Shown: positions 2,587-36,695 of the stretch, piece after piece
Numbering within the stretch: position 1 is the first letter of the stretch
Layout: each line of letters starts with the position of its first letter
Virus record (IMG/VR): IMGVR_UViG_2531839665_000016
Location: 1-36,695 of that record
From: a virus
Taxonomy: Duplodnaviria > Heunggongvirae > Uroviricota > Caudoviricetes
Length of the DNA stretch: 36,695 nt
Strand: one strand, 5' to 3'
Program-made: the position numbers and the translations under genes
Notes under the pieces: generated by a model
What the model was told of the DNA's origin: nothing
Seen by the model: the letters and a program-made list of their open reading frames with translations, nothing else
Databases searched by the model: none

Positions 2587-3131
2587 GCCTCCATCGCTTT
2601 ATCAGGTTTGTCGGTGTTACTGCCCTGACCGTTCTCTCTGTGACGATGCCCGTTATAGGCAAGCCGCATCGCTGACATGGTGGTGCCGGTGGAGTCGCAC
2701 AGGTCTTTCACCTGTCCGGTCACTTCCAGGTCCATTTCAAAACGAGCCTTAGGCGCATTGCGAAACGTGATTGTTTTACCTGCACCGTCCACCACGATCC
2801 CCTCCCGGGTCAGCGTCACGGACTGCCCCTGATCGTCATAGACAGCCACCTCCCCCGTATGCAGCCCTTTCAGGCGGTAGCGCCGGTCCGACACCGTAAC
2901 AACCACCGCATGAGAACGGTCGCCATCCGGAAACAACACCACCGCTTCCGCACCGCTGTTTGCCCTTGCGGTAAAACCGTAGGGTTCAAGATGTTCAACC
3001 CCGGCTTTGGGTTCACCGGCAATCAGGGACACATCCACGGTCTGACATTTCGTGGCGGCACTGATGCTTTTCACCACTGCCCGCCCAATCAGGCCGAGAA
3101 GTTGTCGCTGCATGGCTTCAATCGTCCTCAT
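2583..3131 (-). CDS. Baseplate assembly protein V / spike-like (Mu gp45-like)
   Basis: 182 aa; position immediately downstream of the gpP-like gene. Confidence 0.55.
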   Translation of the reverse strand: MRTIEAMQRQLLGLIGRAVVKSISAATKCQTVDVSLIAGEPKAGVEHLEPYGFTARANSGAEAVVLFPDGDRSHAVVVTVSDRRYRLKGLHTGEVAVYDDQGQSVTLTREGIVVDGAGKTITFRNAPKARFEMDLEVTGQVKDLCDSTGTTMSAMRLAYNGHRHRENGQGSNTDKPDKAMEA

Positions 3132-4210
3132 CAGAACGGGTCCTCCTGTACTCTGGCTTTTTTCTTTTTCCGCGCGCCGGGGTCTTCAGGTTCAGGCAGA
3201 TAAGCATCAGGCGGGCCGACACGGATTTCCGTCAGGGTGCCGTTCTGGTCCTGAGTAAACGTGACTTCCGAAACAAGCAGTTCGGTATTGTCAAAACCAC
3301 AGACCGGATCAAAGACAATCACCCGCTGGTTGGGTTGCCACAGCGTACCGTTACCCTGTCGCCAGCCCTGCACCACATAGGTGGTTTCATCCGTCCGCGC
3401 CGCCCGTTGCCGGGCTTCAAAGTCAGCACGCGCAATACAGCCTGCCCCCGTAGCCTGCCCTGTCTGCCTGATATACATCGGACGGTAACGGGCAATAAAT
3501 GCGTCCTCTGTGCGGGCCCGCAGCGCGGTGGTGGTGGCCTCACCGAAATCATCGTCGTTTCCGGTACGCTGCCCCGCCACCTGGTAAACAGAAAACCGCT
3601 CCCGGATACTCTTCTCCGTATCGCAGGAAAGGATGTTTTCCCCAAGTACCAGCGCGGTATGTGCCCGCGTTGAGCCAATACCGCCAATCACCAGCCTGCC
3701 GTGCGGATCGTCGTAAGCCAGTGCCTGCTGCTGACCGAGTATTTTGTTGATTACCTCAATCACCGTTTCACCGTGATCAGGCTGGACATCAGGAATAACA
3801 CCCGACGGCGCACCGCTGTTCACCACCTCAATGCCGAAAGGCGCAGCAAGCGCCTGCGCAATCTGTACCAGCGATCGTCCGTTAAACTGTGTCGGTTCGG
3901 CTGCACAGTCAATCAGGTCAGCGGTCAGACTGCGTCCGGCAATACCTGTGCTGACCGAACGGGCATCGTAACGAACGGGAGTCGCCTCCACCCAGCCGGT
4001 GATCACCCGCTCATCACCAATCAGCACTTCCACTTTTGAACCGTTTTTAATGCGCGGCTGAAGCGTGGTGATACCCTCATCTCCCGGCCACTGGCGGGTG
4101 ATCTCCACACTGAAATCCCGCGCCAGCCGTTCAATACCGGCACCGATGCGCACCGATGTCCAGCCATTCCACTCCCGGCCATTTACCCGTAGCGTGACGT
4201 TATCGTTCAT
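3131..4210 (-). CDS. Tail protein, Mu gpP / P2 gpD-like (baseplate hub)
   Basis: 359 aa; position between the DNA circulation (gpN-like) gene and baseplate genes; Lys-rich C-terminal tail (ARKKKKARVQEDPF). Confidence 0.55.
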   Translation of the reverse strand: MNDNVTLRVNGREWNGWTSVRIGAGIERLARDFSVEITRQWPGDEGITTLQPRIKNGSKVEVLIGDERVITGWVEATPVRYDARSVSTGIAGRSLTADLIDCAAEPTQFNGRSLVQIAQALAAPFGIEVVNSGAPSGVIPDVQPDHGETVIEVINKILGQQQALAYDDPHGRLVIGGIGSTRAHTALVLGENILSCDTEKSIRERFSVYQVAGQRTGNDDDFGEATTTALRARTEDAFIARYRPMYIRQTGQATGAGCIARADFEARQRAARTDETTYVVQGWRQGNGTLWQPNQRVIVFDPVCGFDNTELLVSEVTFTQDQNGTLTEIRVGPPDAYLPEPEDPGARKKKKARVQEDPF

Positions 4211-18385: not shown

Positions 18386-18679
18386 ATGAAAAAAATGTTG
18401 TTTTCTGCCGCTCTGGCAATGCTTATTACAGGATGTGCTCAACAGACGTTTACTGTTGGAAACAAACCGACAGCAGTAACACCAAAGGAAACCATCACCC
18501 ATCATTTCTTCGTTTCGGGAATTGGACAGCAGAAAACTGTTGATGCAGCCAAAATTTGTGGCGGCGCAGAAAATGTTGTTAAAACAGAAACCCAGCAAAC
18601 ATTCGTAAATGGATTGCTCGGTTTTATTACTTTAGGCATTTATACTCCGCTGGAAGCGCGGGTGTATTGCTCACAATAA
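18386..18679 (+). CDS. bor: Bor lipoprotein (Bor/Iss family)
   Basis: 97 aa from MKKM; lipobox LITGC; near-identical to my recollection of lambda Bor; AGGA Shine-Dalgarno 7 nt upstream; opposite strand to the lysis genes as in lambda. Confidence 0.9.
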   Translation: MKKMLFSAALAMLITGCAQQTFTVGNKPTAVTPKETITHHFFVSGIGQQKTVDAAKICGGAENVVKTETQQTFVNGLLGFITLGIYTPLEARVYCSQ

Positions 18680-20266: not shown

Positions 20267-21442
20267 ATGGATATAACTTGTTTAGAATGTGGCAATGTTC
20301 TTGACGACCCAACTGTAGCTTGCGATAAATGCGGTGCCACGCCTCATGTTGTAGTGCTGGGCAAACAATCGTACTTTCCTATTGGTGCTGTAACAGCAAA
20401 TCTTGAAAAAAATGATTCAAGAGCATTTGATTATCGATTAGGTGAAGTTTGGGATCTAAAAAATGAAGTCACATCTGAATTCATAACCAGAATTGAGAAA
20501 AAATTTAGCCGAAAAAACAAATTTCATAACTTCCTAGACTCAGATCACAACCCTTCATCCATTCCTACGATCCTAAAAAAATACATTAATAAAAATAATG
20601 AATTCATTGATTTATCTAGAGCTATAATAGAGAAGCTTAAACATAATGCTAATAACGAATCGAGAGTTGCCCAACTTCAGGGGGGGAGCGTTGTTTTCAT
20701 CCACTATAAGTCTACCGAACCAGAGGATTTGGGGAAACTTCTAATCGTAATGGTTGATAAACAAAGCGCCTATGACTTTGATTCGGATAAGTTGACCCCA
20801 ACAAGATTAAATCCAATTAATACCGATGCCTTACGGCAGGCTGCGATGTTCGATTTAACTTTATTCGAAGCCAGTTATCCAGAAAACAAGGGTGACTCAT
20901 ATGTACATTTCTTGCAAGGTAAATCTAAAAGCGATTTTTTCAAAGACTCATTAGGTTGCCGACATGATTCGGACAATAAAAGAAGCATTCAGCAATTATT
21001 CAGTGCTATAGATATTTTTGCTAGTAAAAACTCACTCGGTCGTGTACTGCGTGATACTATTGACAATGAAGTTAAATCCTTACTGGAAAAAAAATCAAAA
21101 GATAAACACGGAAATAAGTCCGTTAAGATAGAGGATATTTCAAAAATAATTGACTCATGCCTGACTGATTCACACAAATGTAAGGGAACGTTTGTCGATT
21201 TTGTTAATCTTAATGGTTTCCAGATTGACCCTCAATTTGAACCAACTCCTAAAGCAGCTGAAAGCGCGCTTACAATTGAAGTGGCAGATAACGACAATAA
21301 TTTTAAGTTGAAAATAATGCGTGGAGCTATTGGAGACGAAAAGTCAAATAAGCCTGTAATTCTCACTGACAATAAATGCGAAATTGTGATAAAATTGAGT
21401 CAGGCAAATTATGATGAACTCAAAAGATATAGAGACAGCTAA
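20267..21442 (+). CDS. Zinc-ribbon + YejK/NdpA (NA37)-like nucleoid-associated-protein-family protein; accessory (moron) gene A
   Basis: 391 aa. N-terminal CxxC...CxxC (CLECG...CDKCG). Central region GGSVVFIHY...LIVMV...YVHFLQGKSKSDFFKDSLGC matches my memory of the YejK pattern GGIVLFCHY...YLTFLKG...FFMDFLGA. Lys/Asn-rich, AT-rich coding sequence. Stop overlaps the start of gene B (TAATAATG). Confidence 0.6.
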   Translation: MDITCLECGNVLDDPTVACDKCGATPHVVVLGKQSYFPIGAVTANLEKNDSRAFDYRLGEVWDLKNEVTSEFITRIEKKFSRKNKFHNFLDSDHNPSSIPTILKKYINKNNEFIDLSRAIIEKLKHNANNESRVAQLQGGSVVFIHYKSTEPEDLGKLLIVMVDKQSAYDFDSDKLTPTRLNPINTDALRQAAMFDLTLFEASYPENKGDSYVHFLQGKSKSDFFKDSLGCRHDSDNKRSIQQLFSAIDIFASKNSLGRVLRDTIDNEVKSLLEKKSKDKHGNKSVKIEDISKIIDSCLTDSHKCKGTFVDFVNLNGFQIDPQFEPTPKAAESALTIEVADNDNNFKLKIMRGAIGDEKSNKPVILTDNKCEIVIKLSQANYDELKRYRDS

Positions 21443-21444
21443 TA

Positions 21445-22659
21445 ATGACAATTGCTGATGACTTATCAAGATTAGCGCAGATTATTAACGGAGCCTCAAG
21501 CAGAGTTGAGGGCTACTACACTGTCATAAGTCTTGAAGAAAGCATTGTTATTGTAAATAGTTCTGAAATAATTAGACTGTTACAATCTATAGGTTATAAA
21601 AAGGCAACAACCTGCATCGAAAATAATGAAATTTGGCTAGATCGCCAAGCTTCATCTTGGGATGATGCTATAATTTATGAGAATGTTGAGTCTTTTTGGT
21701 CTAGAGTAAACACCCAAAACGCTCTTCCGAAAAATTATATCATCGGAACGCCGTTAATACTCCCTACTTCTAAGAATGAAAGCATCGAAAAAATCCATAT
21801 TTTCTTTATGTGGAAAGATATCCTTTCATTAATTTCTGATCATCATAACAGTGACTGCTCTGTCTTATTTTTCACCAATGAAGACAAAAGTTATACAGTC
21901 GAACTCACGCATTTTTTACAATATAGCGAGATTAATCGCTTATCGAACTCGTCTCTTAAATATGAAATTATAAAGGAGCTTCTCGACACAATAAAAATCA
22001 ATGATTTACACAAAAGCGAGCGCAAGCTCGTTATACGCTCAGCCATAAACGAAGTATTTAAAGCAAATGGTACGTTCAATTTCTTTGACTTGCTTAACTC
22101 TACTGAACTCGTCAGGAAAAAATATGATGAACTATATGAGATTTACACAAAGAGGTTTTCTGTAAATAAAATTCTTAACGAACTCGATGAGAAAAATCTT
22201 GAGTTCACGAGTAAAATTAACGAATTCATATCATCTAATCAGACAAAAGCATTGACTATTCCCGGTGCATTAATAGCAGCTGGTGGCTTAGTGAAGGCTA
22301 ATGAAACAACCGAAGCAATATTGATTATCGCAGGACTTTGGATGATAAAAAAAGTCAATTACATTTCTATTGAGATATTCAATGAAACATTCGACAACTT
22401 ACGTTCTCGAGTGGAGTCCGCTTTCGATAAGTATTTAAAGTTTGAAGAAAATAAAGAAATCAAAGATAATGCAGATAGTATTAAGAGTAGCATTACAGGT
22501 TTGATTGATAAAGCTAAAAAAAGGATGAGAACTGTTAAATATCTCGCATCAGCCATGTTTTATGGAGGCCTTATTTACGTTGGATATAAACAGTTCCCAG
22601 TCTTTTTTGAAAAATCGGCAGTAAATCTATTTTATTTTTTATGCCATACTATAAGCTAA
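21445..22659 (+). CDS. Hypothetical protein with C-terminal hydrophobic helices; accessory (moron) gene B, putative effector
   Basis: 404 aa, no family recognised. Hydrophobic segments ALTIPGALIAAGGLV...AILIIAGLWMI and YLASAMFYGGLIYVGY near the C-terminus. Translationally coupled to gene A. 3' end overlaps the Q stop convergently by 21 nt. Confidence 0.55.
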   Translation: MTIADDLSRLAQIINGASSRVEGYYTVISLEESIVIVNSSEIIRLLQSIGYKKATTCIENNEIWLDRQASSWDDAIIYENVESFWSRVNTQNALPKNYIIGTPLILPTSKNESIEKIHIFFMWKDILSLISDHHNSDCSVLFFTNEDKSYTVELTHFLQYSEINRLSNSSLKYEIIKELLDTIKINDLHKSERKLVIRSAINEVFKANGTFNFFDLLNSTELVRKKYDELYEIYTKRFSVNKILNELDEKNLEFTSKINEFISSNQTKALTIPGALIAAGGLVKANETTEAILIIAGLWMIKKVNYISIEIFNETFDNLRSRVESAFDKYLKFEENKEIKDNADSIKSSITGLIDKAKKRMRTVKYLASAMFYGGLIYVGYKQFPVFFEKSAVNLFYFLCHTIS

Positions 22660-28851: not shown

Positions 28852-29526
28852 ATGAAAACAATCCATGACATCCGGCGGTCTAACGCCAGAAAACTGAGAG
28901 ATGGTGTTGGCGGGAATTCTTCCTTTGCCACTATGATTGATCGCGAGCCAACCCAGACCAGCAGGTTTATGGGAGATGGTGCTACTAAAAATATCGGTGA
29001 CAGCATGGCACGACACATCGAAAAATGTTTCGACCTGCCTGTAGGATGGCTCGATCAAGAACACCAGACAACGAACATCACAAAAAAACCTGATGTTTCA
29101 ATCACTAATAAACAAATCACATTAGTCCCTGTCATATCATGGGTACAGGCCGGAGCATGGAAAGAAGTTGGATATTCTGAGGTTGATTTGAGCACAGCAG
29201 AAACGTATCCCTGCCCTGTACCCTGTGGGGAAATGACTTATATCTTGCGGGTGATAGGTGATTCAATGATTGATGAGTACCGCCCGGGAGACATGATTTT
29301 TGTCGATCCTGAAGTACCTGCCTGCCACGGTGACGACGTTATTGCATTGATGCACGATACAGGTGAAACCACCTTCAAAAGGTTGATAGAAGATGGGACA
29401 CAGCGTTATCTCAAAGCGTTAAACCCAAACTGGCCTGAGCCTTACATTAAGATCAACGGTAATTGCTCTATAATTGGTACTGTGATTTTCTCAGGAAAAC
29501 CAAGAAGATACAAAATCAAAGCCTAA
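28852..29526 (+). CDS. CI-type prophage repressor (HTH + S24 LexA-like autopeptidase domain)
   Basis: 224 aa; C-terminal GDSM (Ser nucleophile) and TFKRL (Lys) consistent with the S24 Ser-Lys dyad; divergent from cro. Confidence 0.8.
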   Translation: MKTIHDIRRSNARKLRDGVGGNSSFATMIDREPTQTSRFMGDGATKNIGDSMARHIEKCFDLPVGWLDQEHQTTNITKKPDVSITNKQITLVPVISWVQAGAWKEVGYSEVDLSTAETYPCPVPCGEMTYILRVIGDSMIDEYRPGDMIFVDPEVPACHGDDVIALMHDTGETTFKRLIEDGTQRYLKALNPNWPEPYIKINGNCSIIGTVIFSGKPRRYKIKA

Positions 29527-29540
29527 TCAATGTTTATGAA

Positions 29541-29561
29541 CCTGCTTCGGCAGGTTTTTTT
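29541..29561 (+). terminator. Intrinsic terminator downstream of cI
   Basis: Hairpin CCTGC-TTCG-GCAGG followed by TTTTTTT. Confidence 0.6.
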
Positions 29562-29565
29562 ATAC

Positions 29566-29598
29566 TTGACAATGTACCTTTGAGATACATAATGTACC
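29566..29598 (+). promoter_or_regulatory. pL-like early-left promoter with putative operator half-sites
   Basis: TTGACA (29566-29571), 16-nt spacer, CATAAT (29588-29593); AATGTACC direct repeat (29571-29578 and 29591-29598) shares the GTAC core of the cI-cro palindrome. Confidence 0.5.
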
Positions 29599-29699
29599 CA
29601 AGAGAAACAACAAACAGGCAGGACGCCCACGAAGTAGCCGCCTGGGGCATATGAAGTCCAGGATGATTCGTTAGCGGATGATTTCAGTGGAGAGAATAG

Positions 29700-30008
29700 A
29701 TGAATGAGCAGGATTTGAAGCATGTGATCGCATTGTTGCTGGAAGACGCTAAACGTTTGCAGCAGATAGAGCCAAATGCAGGCACTGAGGCCCGTATTTT
29801 GTTAGCAAAACAGGCATTAAAGACTTGCGAGGCGCAAGACCCTGATCGAACCAAGTTCATGAATTTCATGGCTAACACGATCACCCCACTGCCATGCAAT
29901 GGAGAGAGGGTGAGCCGTGTTTATCACGACACAATGGTTAAGGCATTAAGAATCGAGCTTGATGGGCTTAGGCGTAAGATCGTGATGAACAAAATCGTTG
30001 CCAACTAA
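29700..30008 (+). CDS. Hypothetical early-left protein
   Basis: 102 aa; GGAGAG Shine-Dalgarno 6 nt upstream; first gene after the pL-like promoter. Confidence 0.5.
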   Translation: MNEQDLKHVIALLLEDAKRLQQIEPNAGTEARILLAKQALKTCEAQDPDRTKFMNFMANTITPLPCNGERVSRVYHDTMVKALRIELDGLRRKIVMNKIVAN

Positions 30009-30287
30009 GGAAGCAGACGGAAGTAAGCATGCGCTTTGTTCAAATTTGCAGACAAATATATTTGCGTCAACACCAGCACTGTTAGCAATGGAAAAAGTTT
30101 GATCAAGGATTTGTTGGCAGTTCATTGTGCTTTTGAGGATATATCCCTCTGGAATCAGTCTGCAGCAGCTATCGTCAGACTCTTTGATTGTTTTCTGGTA
30201 CAGAAAGTTAAGCATTAATTCTTCAAATTTTTTGGTCTGTTCGGCTGTTGCTTCAAACAGACGAACGTGAACATAAAACTGGTTCAT
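29946..30287 (-). CDS. Hypothetical protein encoded antisense within the early-left operon
   Basis: 113 aa from MNQFYV...; AAGGAAA Shine-Dalgarno 4-6 nt upstream of ATG 30287; AT-rich; 3' end overlaps the preceding plus-strand gene by about 60 nt. Confidence 0.4.
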   Translation of the reverse strand: MNQFYVHVRLFEATAEQTKKFEELMLNFLYQKTIKESDDSCCRLIPEGYILKSTMNCQQILDQTFSIANSAGVDANIFVCKFEQSACLLPSASLVGNDFVHHDLTPKPIKLDS

Positions 30288-30566
30288 TAGGTTTCCTTGC
30301 TGGCTGTGTGAGAACTCCAGCATACCACCGAGCCTGAAGTGGTGAAAAGACAGGCAATAGTTTCATTGCTGTGTGTAGTCCTGGCGGTACCAGTTTGTAC
30401 CCTTGCTTCCGGCTGGTACCGCTCTTTTTACAAAACAGAGAAGAGCATCACCGGACGACGGGCTCATAACCCAATCCATCCGGGCGGCTGCCACCGCAGG
30501 TGTTCTTCTCTGTTTTGTGGAGAAACCAACCGACCTTGCAGGGTCGATATGATGAGGAGCAGCAAA

Positions 30567-30929
30567 ATGGCTAGCGAACGCGGTACTGATGTGCAGGCAT
30601 TTATCGGGGAGCTGGACGGCGGCGTATTTGAAACCAAAATCGGCGCAGTTCTCAGTGAAGTCGCTTCCGGTGTGATGAACACGAAAACCAAAGGTAAGGT
30701 CTCACTCAACCTGGAAATCGAACCATTTGATGAGAACCGTGTGAAAATCAAACACAAACTCTCATATGTTCGCCCGACTAACCGCGGGAAAATTTCCGAA
30801 GAAGACACCACCGAAACGCCGATGTATGTCAATCGCGGTGGGCGCCTGACTATTCTGCAGGAAGACCAGGGACAATTACTGACTCTTGCCGGTGAGCCTG
30901 ACGGAAAACTCCGCGCAGCAGGTCATTAA
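30567..30929 (+). CDS. Hypothetical protein (CPS-53 YfdP-like?)
   Basis: 120 aa from MASERG; GAGGAG Shine-Dalgarno 7 nt upstream. The longer ORF-track start (30339) is rejected. Confidence 0.5.
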   Translation: MASERGTDVQAFIGELDGGVFETKIGAVLSEVASGVMNTKTKGKVSLNLEIEPFDENRVKIKHKLSYVRPTNRGKISEEDTTETPMYVNRGGRLTILQEDQGQLLTLAGEPDGKLRAAGH

Positions 30930-34027: not shown

Positions 34028-34993
34028 TCATTTCTTAAATTTAAGAATTTCTTTTAAGGCTTCTACTATATTTTTATCCCCATCCATGCTAATTTTCTCC
34101 TTCTCAAGAGAAACCGTAGTCTGCCCTTTTTCAAGAACAAAATTACGTTCTGTAGCCATGAGATTTTTAATAACCTCACCCATTAAGTCTTCGTTTCTAA
34201 TGCCCTTAAGAAACTTTATCGCCAAAACTTTGGAATCGATATTGGTAAGCTCATTTTGAAAATACTTGACCTCATCAAAACCATTTTTGTACAACTTCAA
34301 GAAGAAATAAGCAAATAGTTCAACGACAATTACAAATGATAATTTGGGGGCCATGTGAAGTATATATTCAAGCTTATCATTTGTGTTAATAGCATTTGTA
34401 ACTGAATATCCAAGGTAAAGTATCCCACAAAAAGCAATAAATGCACCTAAAACCAGATTAACCCCACCACGTCTATTTAATCTATTTATTTCATTTTCTA
34501 AACGATATACAATATCATTATAGTGTTTACTAATTTCTATTTGATTTCTAAACGAATTTATATCATTTTTCAAACTTAAATCTGCAGCCAAGAGAGTATT
34601 GCCTACAATCTTTTTTTTAGCATTATCGATCAACTCTTGCCTTTCTTTTGATGTGAGTAAAACACCATTTAAATCTTTCGAATCATTTGTAACTAGTTGA
34701 TTAAACTCTTGCTTTAAGGAGTCTAATTCTGACTTTAACTCTTCATATGAGTTAACATTCTTGTTTTTACTTTCACCTATTCCTTTATTAACATAATTTA
34801 ATAAAAATGCTGCCATAAAAGTTAAAATCAGAGTTGCAATAAAGAAACTATTTTCATCTTGAAGTATTTTAGCAACAGTGGAAAAATAACTTACGAGAAG
34901 AGGCTGAGCATTATAAAGCCCCATTCCTAACAAAACTGCAATTGCCGTACCTAAAACGAACCTTACTTCTTGTCTTTTTAGTAACCTATTCAT
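34028..34993 (-). CDS. Membrane protein with 4 predicted TM helices (2+2) and central coiled coil; candidate effector
   Basis: 321 aa; hydrophobic helices VRFVLGTAIAVLLGMGLY, FFIATLILTFMAAFLLNYV, VNLVLGAFIAFCGILYLGY, LSFVIVVELFAYFFLKLY; AT-rich. Confidence 0.55.
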   Translation of the reverse strand: MNRLLKRQEVRFVLGTAIAVLLGMGLYNAQPLLVSYFSTVAKILQDENSFFIATLILTFMAAFLLNYVNKGIGESKNKNVNSYEELKSELDSLKQEFNQLVTNDSKDLNGVLLTSKERQELIDNAKKKIVGNTLLAADLSLKNDINSFRNQIEISKHYNDIVYRLENEINRLNRRGGVNLVLGAFIAFCGILYLGYSVTNAINTNDKLEYILHMAPKLSFVIVVELFAYFFLKLYKNGFDEVKYFQNELTNIDSKVLAIKFLKGIRNEDLMGEVIKNLMATERNFVLEKGQTTVSLEKEKISMDGDKNIVEALKEILKFKK

Positions 34994-35555
34994 TATGACA
35001 CCATATGTTATTATTTAACGTTTTATTAAATTCAAAATACTGCCCGAGATTTTAATACTCATAACAAAATAAGAATTAATATACAAAATTTTTCATACTA
35101 CAAGCAAGGCTTTGATAAATTGTTTTGATAACGATTTGATAACCGTTAGAAATCTAATAATAAAAACGGGAGCCATCAGACTTCCGTTTTTGATAACCCG
35201 GAGCCTAGATTTGGCTACCCCAGCAGGAAGATGCAACGTCCACGATTGTCACAAATCAGGCTGGCTCGAGGCAGAATGGCGACTGTGAGGGAGAAACGAA
35301 AGTTCACACTCGTTCTCACTGCTGATGGGGGGTTCACTAACAATCTCAAGCACTAATTAATGGACGAAACTCTACACAAAGCCCCATTTTGTAGGAAAAC
35401 TGGTAACGGATTAGTAATACTACCCGGCCAGAACATGACCGACCGGGTAAAAAAATATCCTGACGCTACTAAGCCTTTAAGATTTGACTAACCTAGTGCT
35501 TACATTATAGAGAACTGCTTATGCCTTCTAAATTATAGAGTAAAAATACTCACCA

Positions 35556-36695
35556 CTAAAATACAACTTGCTTCCTTAGTAAATCACCTCTAGCATTTGA
35601 GTAATATTCAGTCGAATTGCCAGTAACTTCCCGGAGTACTTCTGTTACAAGGTTATTTAGTATTCCCGTAAGTTTAAGAAACTCTCCATATGAATTAGGT
35701 TTCTCAAATATCTTTCTGGTACCGTTCGGCACATCGAGCTGCATTGCAGCATCATGATCCTGGGCTAAGTGATTTAGCCAGCGGTGAGTCTCAACAAGTA
35801 CAGCAAGTTCATAGTATGTACTATGACGGAGATTATTAGCATCTGCATGGTACATTAGTGAAGCAATATCATAGCTGCTTAGATCAATACTCGAACCTTC
35901 GTCTCCACTGTCTGCTTTCAGGGTTTTGAGCATGCGAATTGATTTTCTTAATCCACCATTGCATTGATCGCATTTGTCTTTGATACGTTGCATGTGGAGG
36001 AACGGTTCATTGTAGATACGCTCTCGTTTGTTTTTATCAATTATGGTAACTCCACGATGTTCTTCTTTTTTTGTGAGTTGGTACTCTTTCGTATCCCACC
36101 ATATGCCTGGCACTACATCAACTTCTCTTTGAAGACTCCCCCCCGTTATTCTCAAGGACTTGGCGTTATTATCGTCAACCTGAGCAGCAGGAAATGTCAT
36201 TTTTAGAGCATCTCGAGCTGCACGCCTAAGTTCAATGATGACGTCTCGGCCATCTTTCTCAGCTGCACTATAGCTGCCAACTCCACCGCTATCATACATA
36301 AGCATCTGAGTATCAATAATTAAAAGATCTACATCACTGAAACCTTTGATATGGATATCTAGGGGAACAGAACCTTGTACCCGAAAATCTAGGTTTAGGT
36401 CTAATTTCTTAGTCAGCTGATTTTCAATACGATACGCGGTTTCGAATGAGATCTCTGTATAGCGGGGGTCAACTGGTTGCATCGCACCAATGACATACCG
36501 GATAGCTGAATCGTCTCTTCCTCTAGACTCCCAACTTTCATTAAGCTCAAGAGCATCTTCAAGCAATGCATATTTTTCAAGGCCATCATATCTTTGATTA
36601 CTCATTGATTCTGTGGCTACTCGCAACTGATCATATGTCCCTTTACGACGTGACTTCATGCGTTCAATACGCGAACTATATGATGAATTAGACAT
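35556..36695 (-). CDS. cGAS/DncV-like nucleotidyltransferase (CD-NTase-like); start coincides with window edge
   Basis: 379 aa; pol-beta NTase motifs by my residue count: G108-S109 (QGSVPLD), D121-x-D123 (SDVDLLI), D193 in EVDVVPG (h-D-h-h-P). This spacing matches what I recall for DncV-type cyclases. AT-rich. The ATG is at the last bases of the window, so the N-terminus may be incomplete. Confidence 0.55.
   Translation of the reverse strand: MSNSSYSSRIERMKSRRKGTYDQLRVATESMSNQRYDGLEKYALLEDALELNESWESRGRDDSAIRYVIGAMQPVDPRYTEISFETAYRIENQLTKKLDLNLDFRVQGSVPLDIHIKGFSDVDLLIIDTQMLMYDSGGVGSYSAAEKDGRDVIIELRRAARDALKMTFPAAQVDDNNAKSLRITGGSLQREVDVVPGIWWDTKEYQLTKKEEHRGVTIIDKNKRERIYNEPFLHMQRIKDKCDQCNGGLRKSIRMLKTLKADSGDEGSSIDLSSYDIASLMYHADANNLRHSTYYELAVLVETHRWLNHLAQDHDAAMQLDVPNGTRKIFEKPNSYGEFLKLTGILNNLVTEVLREVTGNSTEYYSNARGDLLRKQVVF

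Follow-up and report, generated by a model that had tools for sequence, protein, structure and literature searches.

By position, the gene treated here has its counterparts in sieB, the superinfection exclusion gene B of bacteriophages lambda and P22. Both lie antisense to the operon of the early-left promoter (PL) and are convergent with N or gene 24, in the order repressor gene, N-slot gene, antisense gene and then ral and kil. sieB is reportedly expressed in the lysogen. In both phages a conserved core of 32 nucleotides (nt), present in 138 phage records, is located 70-105 nt upstream of sieB. Our analysis concerns ymfI, a minus-strand gene at 29946..30287 of the IMG/VR virus record IMGVR_UViG_2531839665_000016 (Caudoviricetes); the whole stretch of 36,695 nt is referred to as the window. 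Like sieB, ymfI follows the first PL gene, is convergent with it and antisense to the PL operon, and has the same 32-nt core upstream. Since core, gene order and orientation are those of lambda and P22 sieB, ymfI is considered to fill the sieB slot. It is almost certain that the open reading frame (ORF) is a genuine gene, that it belongs to the YmfI family and that it lies in this slot. The gene itself is already catalogued, in a family without assigned function, and the new part is its slot context.

In the window, a LexA-like, cI-like S24-peptidase repressor gene (28852..29526) and its terminator (29538-29557) are directly followed by a PL-like early-left promoter, TTGACA-16-CATAAT, at 29566..29593 (plus strand), which matches the consensus at 11 of 12 positions. 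Because these elements precede it, the plus-strand gene at 29700..30008 is regarded as the first of the early-left operon. It encodes a YmfJ homologue of 102 amino acids (aa; phrog_12693; ymfJ in Escherichia coli K-12), referred to below as the partner, and it converges on ymfI. Further downstream follow yfdP, yfdQ, yfdR, xis and int, and all genes from PL to int are on the plus strand except ymfI. A preliminary description made from the sequence alone had already placed a 113-aa minus-strand ORF with an AAGGAAA ribosome-binding site in an otherwise plus-strand early-left operon, overlapping the preceding gene by about 60 nt; these points hold, and the overlap measures 63 nt (29946..30008). 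Its remark on local AT-richness stands in a weaker form, as the G+C content over the ORF (0.39-0.43) is below that of the flanks (0.45-0.55) but the difference is mild. Its statement that no family could be recognised was wrong.

The profile searches proposed there assigned the protein to the YmfI family. It passed the NCBIfam equivalog model NF051477 (YmfI_phage) with 162 bits at a cut-off of 140 (E 3.5e-48), residues 1-90 being aligned to profile positions 1-89 of 89, and it matched phrog_8894 with an E value of 1.7e-41. E. coli MDR_56, to whose chromosome the window is 100% identical, has the same gene, annotated in RefSeq as ymfI (protein WP_001307125.1); the SfV/e14-like prophage to which it belongs there combines a contractile tail with a head of the HK97 type. 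The e14 element of K-12 has ymfI, ymfJ and ymfK in the same arrangement at 95.6% nucleotide identity. Its ymfI (b1143) encodes a protein of the same family and length (113 aa, about 97% identity) and likewise overlaps a convergent ymfJ beside a cI-like gene (ymfK/cohE). The K-12 element is a 15-kb remnant, whereas the prophage of the window appears to be complete and retains yfdP-yfdQ-yfdR-xis-int.

The full ymfI module was found in 303 of 5,426 complete E. coli genomes (about 5-6%), many of them K-12 derivatives. About 30 protein clusters were collected from Escherichia, Klebsiella, Raoultella, Enterobacter, Salmonella and Scandinavium, and distant relatives, including those of Edwardsiella, have 92-102 aa, share 32-57% identity and lack the last 20 residues. 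A scan of GTDB genomes yielded three loci and further contexts were gathered by exact-protein look-ups. At the window locus and at each of 14 related ones, ymfI is part of a prophage, is placed beside the immunity region and converges on the first early-left gene, which it overlaps; this architecture is constant at protein identities of 32-100%. Frameshifted or internally deleted variants of 63-105 aa also exist in public assemblies (P0024-P0029), which suggests that the gene occasionally decays.

The minus-strand ORF spans 29946..30323, and translation from an internal ATG (30287) yields the protein of 113 aa. The Shine-Dalgarno sequence AAGGAAA (30298-30292, minus strand) is 6 bases upstream of this ATG, and the ribosome-site stretch AGCAAGGAA was kept in 10 of 10 aligned loci, so that both the ORF and its Shine-Dalgarno sequence are conserved among related prophages. 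The alternative start at 30323, which would give 125 aa, was rejected because this ATG falls within the -10-like hexamer described below and is shifted out of frame by indels in the K-12-like loci and in loci L011 and L013; the start is therefore placed at 30287. Four database entries (P0004, P0008, P0009 and P0019) begin 12 codons upstream, with 124-125 aa, and this start is probably mis-called.

A codon analysis was carried out on ten aligned loci with the in-phase antisense frame of the same DNA as control. Outside the overlap, the ratio of non-synonymous to synonymous differences per site (pN/pS) was 0.18-0.21 in the ymfI frame and 1.5-1.7 in the control frame. Variable sites at codon positions 1, 2 and 3 (codons 1-93, outside the overlap, counted as minimum changes) numbered 33, 22 and 94. 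The ymfI gene is thus under purifying selection. Within the overlap the two genes are in exact antiparallel codon register, with position 1 opposite position 3. The preliminary description had considered that only the plus-strand frame might be constrained here, which is not what was found: over the 19 overlapping codons, for which substitution counts are small, the ymfI frame gave a pN/pS of 0.26-0.41 and the partner frame one of 0.72-1.11, the former being no less constrained than the latter. Synonymous divergence was here about half of that elsewhere, as dual coding predicts. Just outside the overlap, the C-terminal region of the partner gave a ratio of 0.36 against a control of 1.3-1.6. 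On these ratios, ymfI and the partner are both taken to be real genes.

Upstream of ymfI lies the most conserved stretch of the module. The 32-nt core and the adjoining -10-like hexamer (30319..30356, minus strand; GCCTGTCTTTTCACCACTTCAGGCTCGGTGGTATGCT at 30355-30319) are regarded as the putative ymfI promoter, with a -35 element TTCACC at 30346-30341, a spacer of 16 nt and an extended -10 element TGgTATGCT at 30327-30319 (TG at 30327-30326, TATGCT at 30324-30319). Across loci with unrelated flanks, conservation begins abruptly at about 30355 and stops at about 29880, and the 30 best-conserved bases of the module (97%) are non-coding, the core being more conserved than the coding sequence. From there, a leader with a predicted length of about 25 nt runs up to the conserved ribosome site. 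Lambda and P22 have the hexamer TTCTCG behind the core in place of TATGCT, and the leader of sieB measures 70-105 nt in contrast to about 25-37 nt for ymfI. A description of the sieB promoter was not found in the open literature.

The core is followed by interchangeable cargo. In a scan of IMG/VR at least 120 contigs carried the core; the counts of cargo and hexamers given here refer to the 120 matches listed. The first plausible downstream ORF belonged to at least 20 unrelated clusters, and ymfI is on this ground one occupant of the slot among others. SieB was encoded on 33 contigs, the family of an unannotated 81-aa ORF of SfV on 15, a 66-76-aa protein with two CxxC pairs on nine, SfII_36 on eight and YmfI on four. 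A 104-aa protein, several acidic proteins of 74-89 aa and many more families also occur behind the core. The hexamer TTCTCG of the sieB class was present on 40 contigs, and 65 of the 120 carried a -10-like hexamer: TATCCT (20), TATTCT (18), TATGCT (13), TATCTT (11), TATACT (2) or TACTCT (1). In this class T1, A2 and T6 are fixed, T3 is found in 64 of 65 and positions 4-5 are free, and by sequence the pattern is as expected for a selected sigma-70 -10 element. At the loci with -10-like hexamers the cargo ATG is 34-41 nt past the core. Of 47 such loci with a convergent ORF of 55 aa or more, 43 show 3' ends that overlap, by 11-89 nt, and the loci of SfV, SfII, Rac-SA53 and a Klebsiella phage, which were inspected by hand, agree. 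Because 3'-3' overlaps of 11-90 nt recur in unrelated gene pairs of the sieB slot, the opposite-strand design with overlapping tails is a general feature of the slot and is not specific to ymfI. In the SfV record U82619.2 the unannotated 81-aa ORF behind the core (2914-3159, minus strand) shares 83 nt with the end of orf33 and is probably a gene missed in that record.

These features indicate that ymfI is probably transcribed independently in the lysogen. Expression data for the K-12 homologues fit a ymfI gene outside repressor control, i.e. with independent expression in the uninduced state. After treatment with ciprofloxacin, ymfJ rose late to a log2 value of 4.8 (about 30-fold) and the YmfJ protein was detected at a late stage of the SOS response, whereas ymfI reached only about log2 2 (about 4-fold), at the last time point. 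The K-12 'YmfT' iModulon, which reports e14 induction, lists ymfJ, intE, xisE and ymfH and does not contain ymfI. Basal expression of ymfI is recorded in K-12, with a decrease in anaerobic biofilms as well as under a number of stresses. Taken together, a promoter of its own and expression in the lysogen are considered likely for ymfI.

On the plus strand, just past the putative ymfI promoter in the direction of PL transcription, a terminator-like hairpin (30383..30431) with a 13-bp stem and a predicted energy of -21 kcal/mol is followed by UCUUUUU. A second hairpin of 25 bp (30430-30520) lies in the leader upstream of yfdP. This 283-nt leader folds much better than shuffled controls (z = -4.7), and the block that opens at the 30383 hairpin is conserved at 98-99% identity in many lambdoid and Shiga toxin (Stx) phages, in which no N-like first PL gene was seen. 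Rfam searches of the whole window and, at a relaxed threshold, of 29400-30700 gave nothing credible. The leader at 30383-30566 could be a tL1-type terminator together with an antitermination or processing element. If PL transcription ends at the hairpin at 30383-30431, its transcript would, unassisted, comprise ymfJ and full-length antisense ymfI.

The comparison with P22 offers a precedent for such an RNA. A small-RNA study published in 2026 (PMC13397905) gives the sequence of the antisense RNA sas of P22 (11,387-11,513 of the P22 genome). This RNA begins opposite the start codon of sieB and holds the exact complement of the core in its 3' part; in P22 the core is thus transcribed on the opposite strand, within sas, and a PL-sense RNA over the 5' end of sieB exists. 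We propose that ymfI, an accessory gene of e14/SfV-like lambdoid prophages, is a lysogen-expressed cargo gene of the sieB slot which is silenced by read-through from PL and which has a role in exclusion or in buffering lysogeny. The gene would be transcribed from the core promoter in the lysogen as long as PL is repressed. Upon induction or infection, PL transcription would cross ymfJ and then the whole of ymfI in antisense, including its ribosome site and promoter, up to the hairpin at 30383-30431. Interference with transcription together with pairing of the RNAs would then silence ymfI, in the way in which sas acts on P22 sieB. YmfI, a small protein that is GhoS-like in its predicted fold, would act on an RNA or a protein of an incoming or awakening phage, with or against the early partner protein, and the basic, conserved C-terminal domain of the partner may be a linked counter-factor or a target of YmfI. 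The probability of this explanation as a whole is put at roughly 0.45. Of its parts, silencing by PL read-through has about an even chance and a role in exclusion or lysogeny buffering is doubtful; an activity directed at RNA appears quite unlikely. The preliminary description had suggested a lysogen-expressed moron with an exclusion or anti-defence function. Orientation, the promoter-like core, the position of sieB and the K-12 data speak for the lysogen-expressed moron, and the function finds no backing in that YmfI is unrelated to SieB and the PADLOC searches were empty.

The AlphaFold2 model of YmfI, built from an alignment of 20 sequences, shows a ferredoxin-like core with the order beta-alpha-beta-beta-alpha-beta in residues 1-83, with a predicted local distance difference test score (pLDDT) of mostly 84-93, and a disordered tail in residues 84-113 (pLDDT <50). 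The maximum hydropathy over 19 residues is 1.24 and a membrane segment is absent; by sequence YmfI is a small, acidic, soluble cytoplasmic protein. SieB, by contrast, has 179-192 aa with hydrophobic segments and is related to YmfI neither in sequence nor in fold; no SieB match to YmfI was obtained in Pfam, PHROG or NCBIfam, and BLAST clustering separates the two. A reading of YmfI as SieB homologue was rejected because membrane segments and a relation in sequence are both lacking. Unlike in SieB/Esc, no internal start of the Esc type is evident in ymfI.

In the structure search that had been proposed, Foldseek against 350,542 PDB chains placed GhoS first (E 5e-3), with Cas2 lower in the list, and GhoS is the nearest solved fold. 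GhoS (YjdK), the endoribonuclease antitoxin of a type V system, has a Cas2-like ferredoxin fold with the same beta-alpha-beta-beta-alpha-beta order as the YmfI model. Sequence identity between GhoS and YmfI is 10%. The Pfam model of GhoS (PF11080, gathering cut-off 21 bits) did not match the window protein, and on the relatives P0031 and P0038 it gave collinear alignments of 14.3 and 12.7 bits, below the threshold (E 0.04 and 0.13 for the two hits). GhoS has the small membrane toxin gene ghoT downstream in its operon. No conserved small hydrophobic ORF was found downstream of ymfI on the same strand. Membership of YmfI in the GhoS family was rejected in view of the profile comparison reported below and the missing Pfam match, and the protein is GhoS-like in its predicted fold only. 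A type II toxin-antitoxin reading was likewise rejected, as YmfI contains no toxin or antitoxin domains.

Several observations weigh against the proposed exclusion or buffering gene silenced from PL. No experiment or database entry was found that ties YmfI to an activity. Searches of Pfam, PADLOC and the PDB sequences with the family profile returned no match, and PADLOC-DB 2.0 gave no family at E values up to 1 for YmfI, YmfJ or YfdP. No match was obtained by tblastn in 50,697 isolated phage genomes, and the family was met only in prophages and IMG/VR contigs. A generic promoter scanner did not list the ymfI promoter. The conservation of the core may serve a sas-type RNA, instead of or alongside a promoter; a core that acts on both strands would explain its extreme conservation. 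The selection estimates for the 19-codon overlap come from few substitutions, and the most distant relative, P0038, is paired with a different, SfV-orf33-like partner. As to the structure, the lead of GhoS over the next fold matches is small and the ferredoxin-like fold is very common. Alignment of the YmfI profile with GhoS by hhalign (single sequence and family alignment) gave probabilities of 0.25-0.5%, and no gene for a GhoT-like membrane peptide accompanies ymfI, the DNA downstream on the same strand holding only the antisense of the partner.

An explanation in which YmfI and the first PL product form a regulatory or antidote pair appears rather unlikely. YmfI made in the lysogen would bind the conserved basic C-terminal helix of the partner or destroy its mRNA and would thereby buffer a leaky PL and stabilise lysogeny, the balance would flip on induction, and the primary role would be the control of the prophage's own switch and not the exclusion of other phages. 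The partner offers several arguments for it. Its conserved C-terminal domain ITPLPC..RVYHDTMVKALRIEL... (29883..30005, plus strand) is co-inherited with ymfI; among the 14 loci that encode a YmfI relative, 13 have a partner ending in approximately ITPLPCxGxxVxRVYHxTMVKALRIEL. N-terminal halves of four or more unrelated types are found on this one domain (29700-29882 in the window; loci L006-L013 and L020-L023), which places a recombination joint inside the first PL gene. The C-terminal portion of about 45 aa nevertheless stays with YmfI, also at loci with an overlap of just 14-22 nt and a YmfI that lacks its tail (P0033 and the Edwardsiella loci). YmfI is acidic (isoelectric point, pI, 5.2) and the partner domain basic (pI 10.0), and together with co-inheritance these opposite charges suggest a functional pair. 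The convergent overlap would allow reciprocal antisense control, the K-12 pair being listed as an excludon, and the predicted fold resembles that of GhoS, an antitoxin which cleaves the mRNA of its partner. On the other hand, the 63 shared nucleotides force part of the co-occurrence and P0038 has another partner. A fixed RNA target within the domain is unlikely because synonymous changes are many (proportion of synonymous differences, pS, about 0.48). We know of no toxicity of YmfJ, which also counts against an antidote pair. A single-sequence model of YmfJ was unreliable (pLDDT 53), showed helices only and was used for secondary structure alone.

Beside the immunity region, the Klebsiella loci L008 and L011 carry HipA_2/DUF3037, DUF6414 and DUF2767 genes between the repressor gene and the ymfJ-type gene, and this interval is a second variable spot.

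Another alternative is that RNA is the main product of the locus, acting as an excludon or a sas-like switch with the YmfI protein as a secondary product or passenger. Transcripts from the core would enter the first PL gene in antisense, and those from PL would pass over ymfI in antisense. It would account for a core whose conservation exceeds that of the coding sequence and which belongs to sas in P22, as well as for the recurrence of 3'-3' overlaps with unrelated gene pairs. ExcludonFinder lists ymfI-ymfJ of K-12 as a convergent excludon from RNA-seq coverage, and as in described excludons the 3' ends of the two convergent genes overlap and leave no room for a terminator between them, the RNA overlap itself being a list entry for the K-12 homologues. 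The ymfI locus differs from excludons in that both partners encode conserved proteins and lie within the lysogeny/lysis switch region of a phage. Purifying selection on YmfI (pN/pS of about 0.2, with the distribution over codon positions given above), the strong and conserved ribosome site, the confidently predicted domain and an ORF kept down to 32% identity make this view improbable.

A bolder version of the proposed exclusion or buffering role is a two-part prophage system, in which a GhoS-like YmfI, made in the lysogen from the portable promoter of the slot, would cleave or bind RNA and disable early transcripts or an early protein of an incoming or leaky phage, the partner tail and the PL antisense RNA would neutralise YmfI on induction, and the 32-nt core would mark a hotspot of dozens of uncharacterised, lysogen-expressed exclusion or defence genes. 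Such a system is given a low probability. Finally, YmfI might be an anti-defence or host-takeover protein of lytic growth, e.g. a small acidic protein that inhibits a nuclease or a restriction system of the host, comparable to its slot neighbour Ral in lambda. Its small, acidic and soluble nature, its place in the early region, where lambda and P22 have genes of this kind, and the roughly 4-fold late rise after DNA damage would allow this, but it is very improbable: ymfI is missing from the e14 induction list, antisense reads may account for its late rise, no match was found to known anti-defence folds or, at E <=0.001, in a fold search of BFVD, and lysogen expression suits the gene better than infection because early PL transcription opposes its orientation and ymfI has a putative promoter of its own.

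If it is true that the genes behind the core are lysogen-expressed factors of exclusion or lysogeny control, the core sequence would be a simple handle for finding them. The K-12 ymfI gene would then be an easy first test case, and without a phenotype the locus would be an ordinary uncharacterised moron.

Some further features of the window complete the picture. A candidate terminator of the ymfI transcript (29824..29838, minus strand), a weak one from a pattern scan, lies within ymfJ 108 nt past the ymfI stop codon and was found solely in loci whose partner has the YmfJ-type N-terminus. Other genes also run opposite to their neighbouring operons. These are iss, which encodes a bor-like serum-survival lipoprotein (18387-18677, plus strand) and follows the lysis genes, and, after the Q antiterminator gene, the genes of a nucleoid-associated protein (20268-21131, plus strand) and of a 404-aa hypothetical protein (21445-22659, plus strand); all three are candidate morons. 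Just past the integrase gene and outside the likely prophage end, a macro-domain gene (34105-35346, minus strand) and an HD-domain gene (35928-36695, minus strand) were located.

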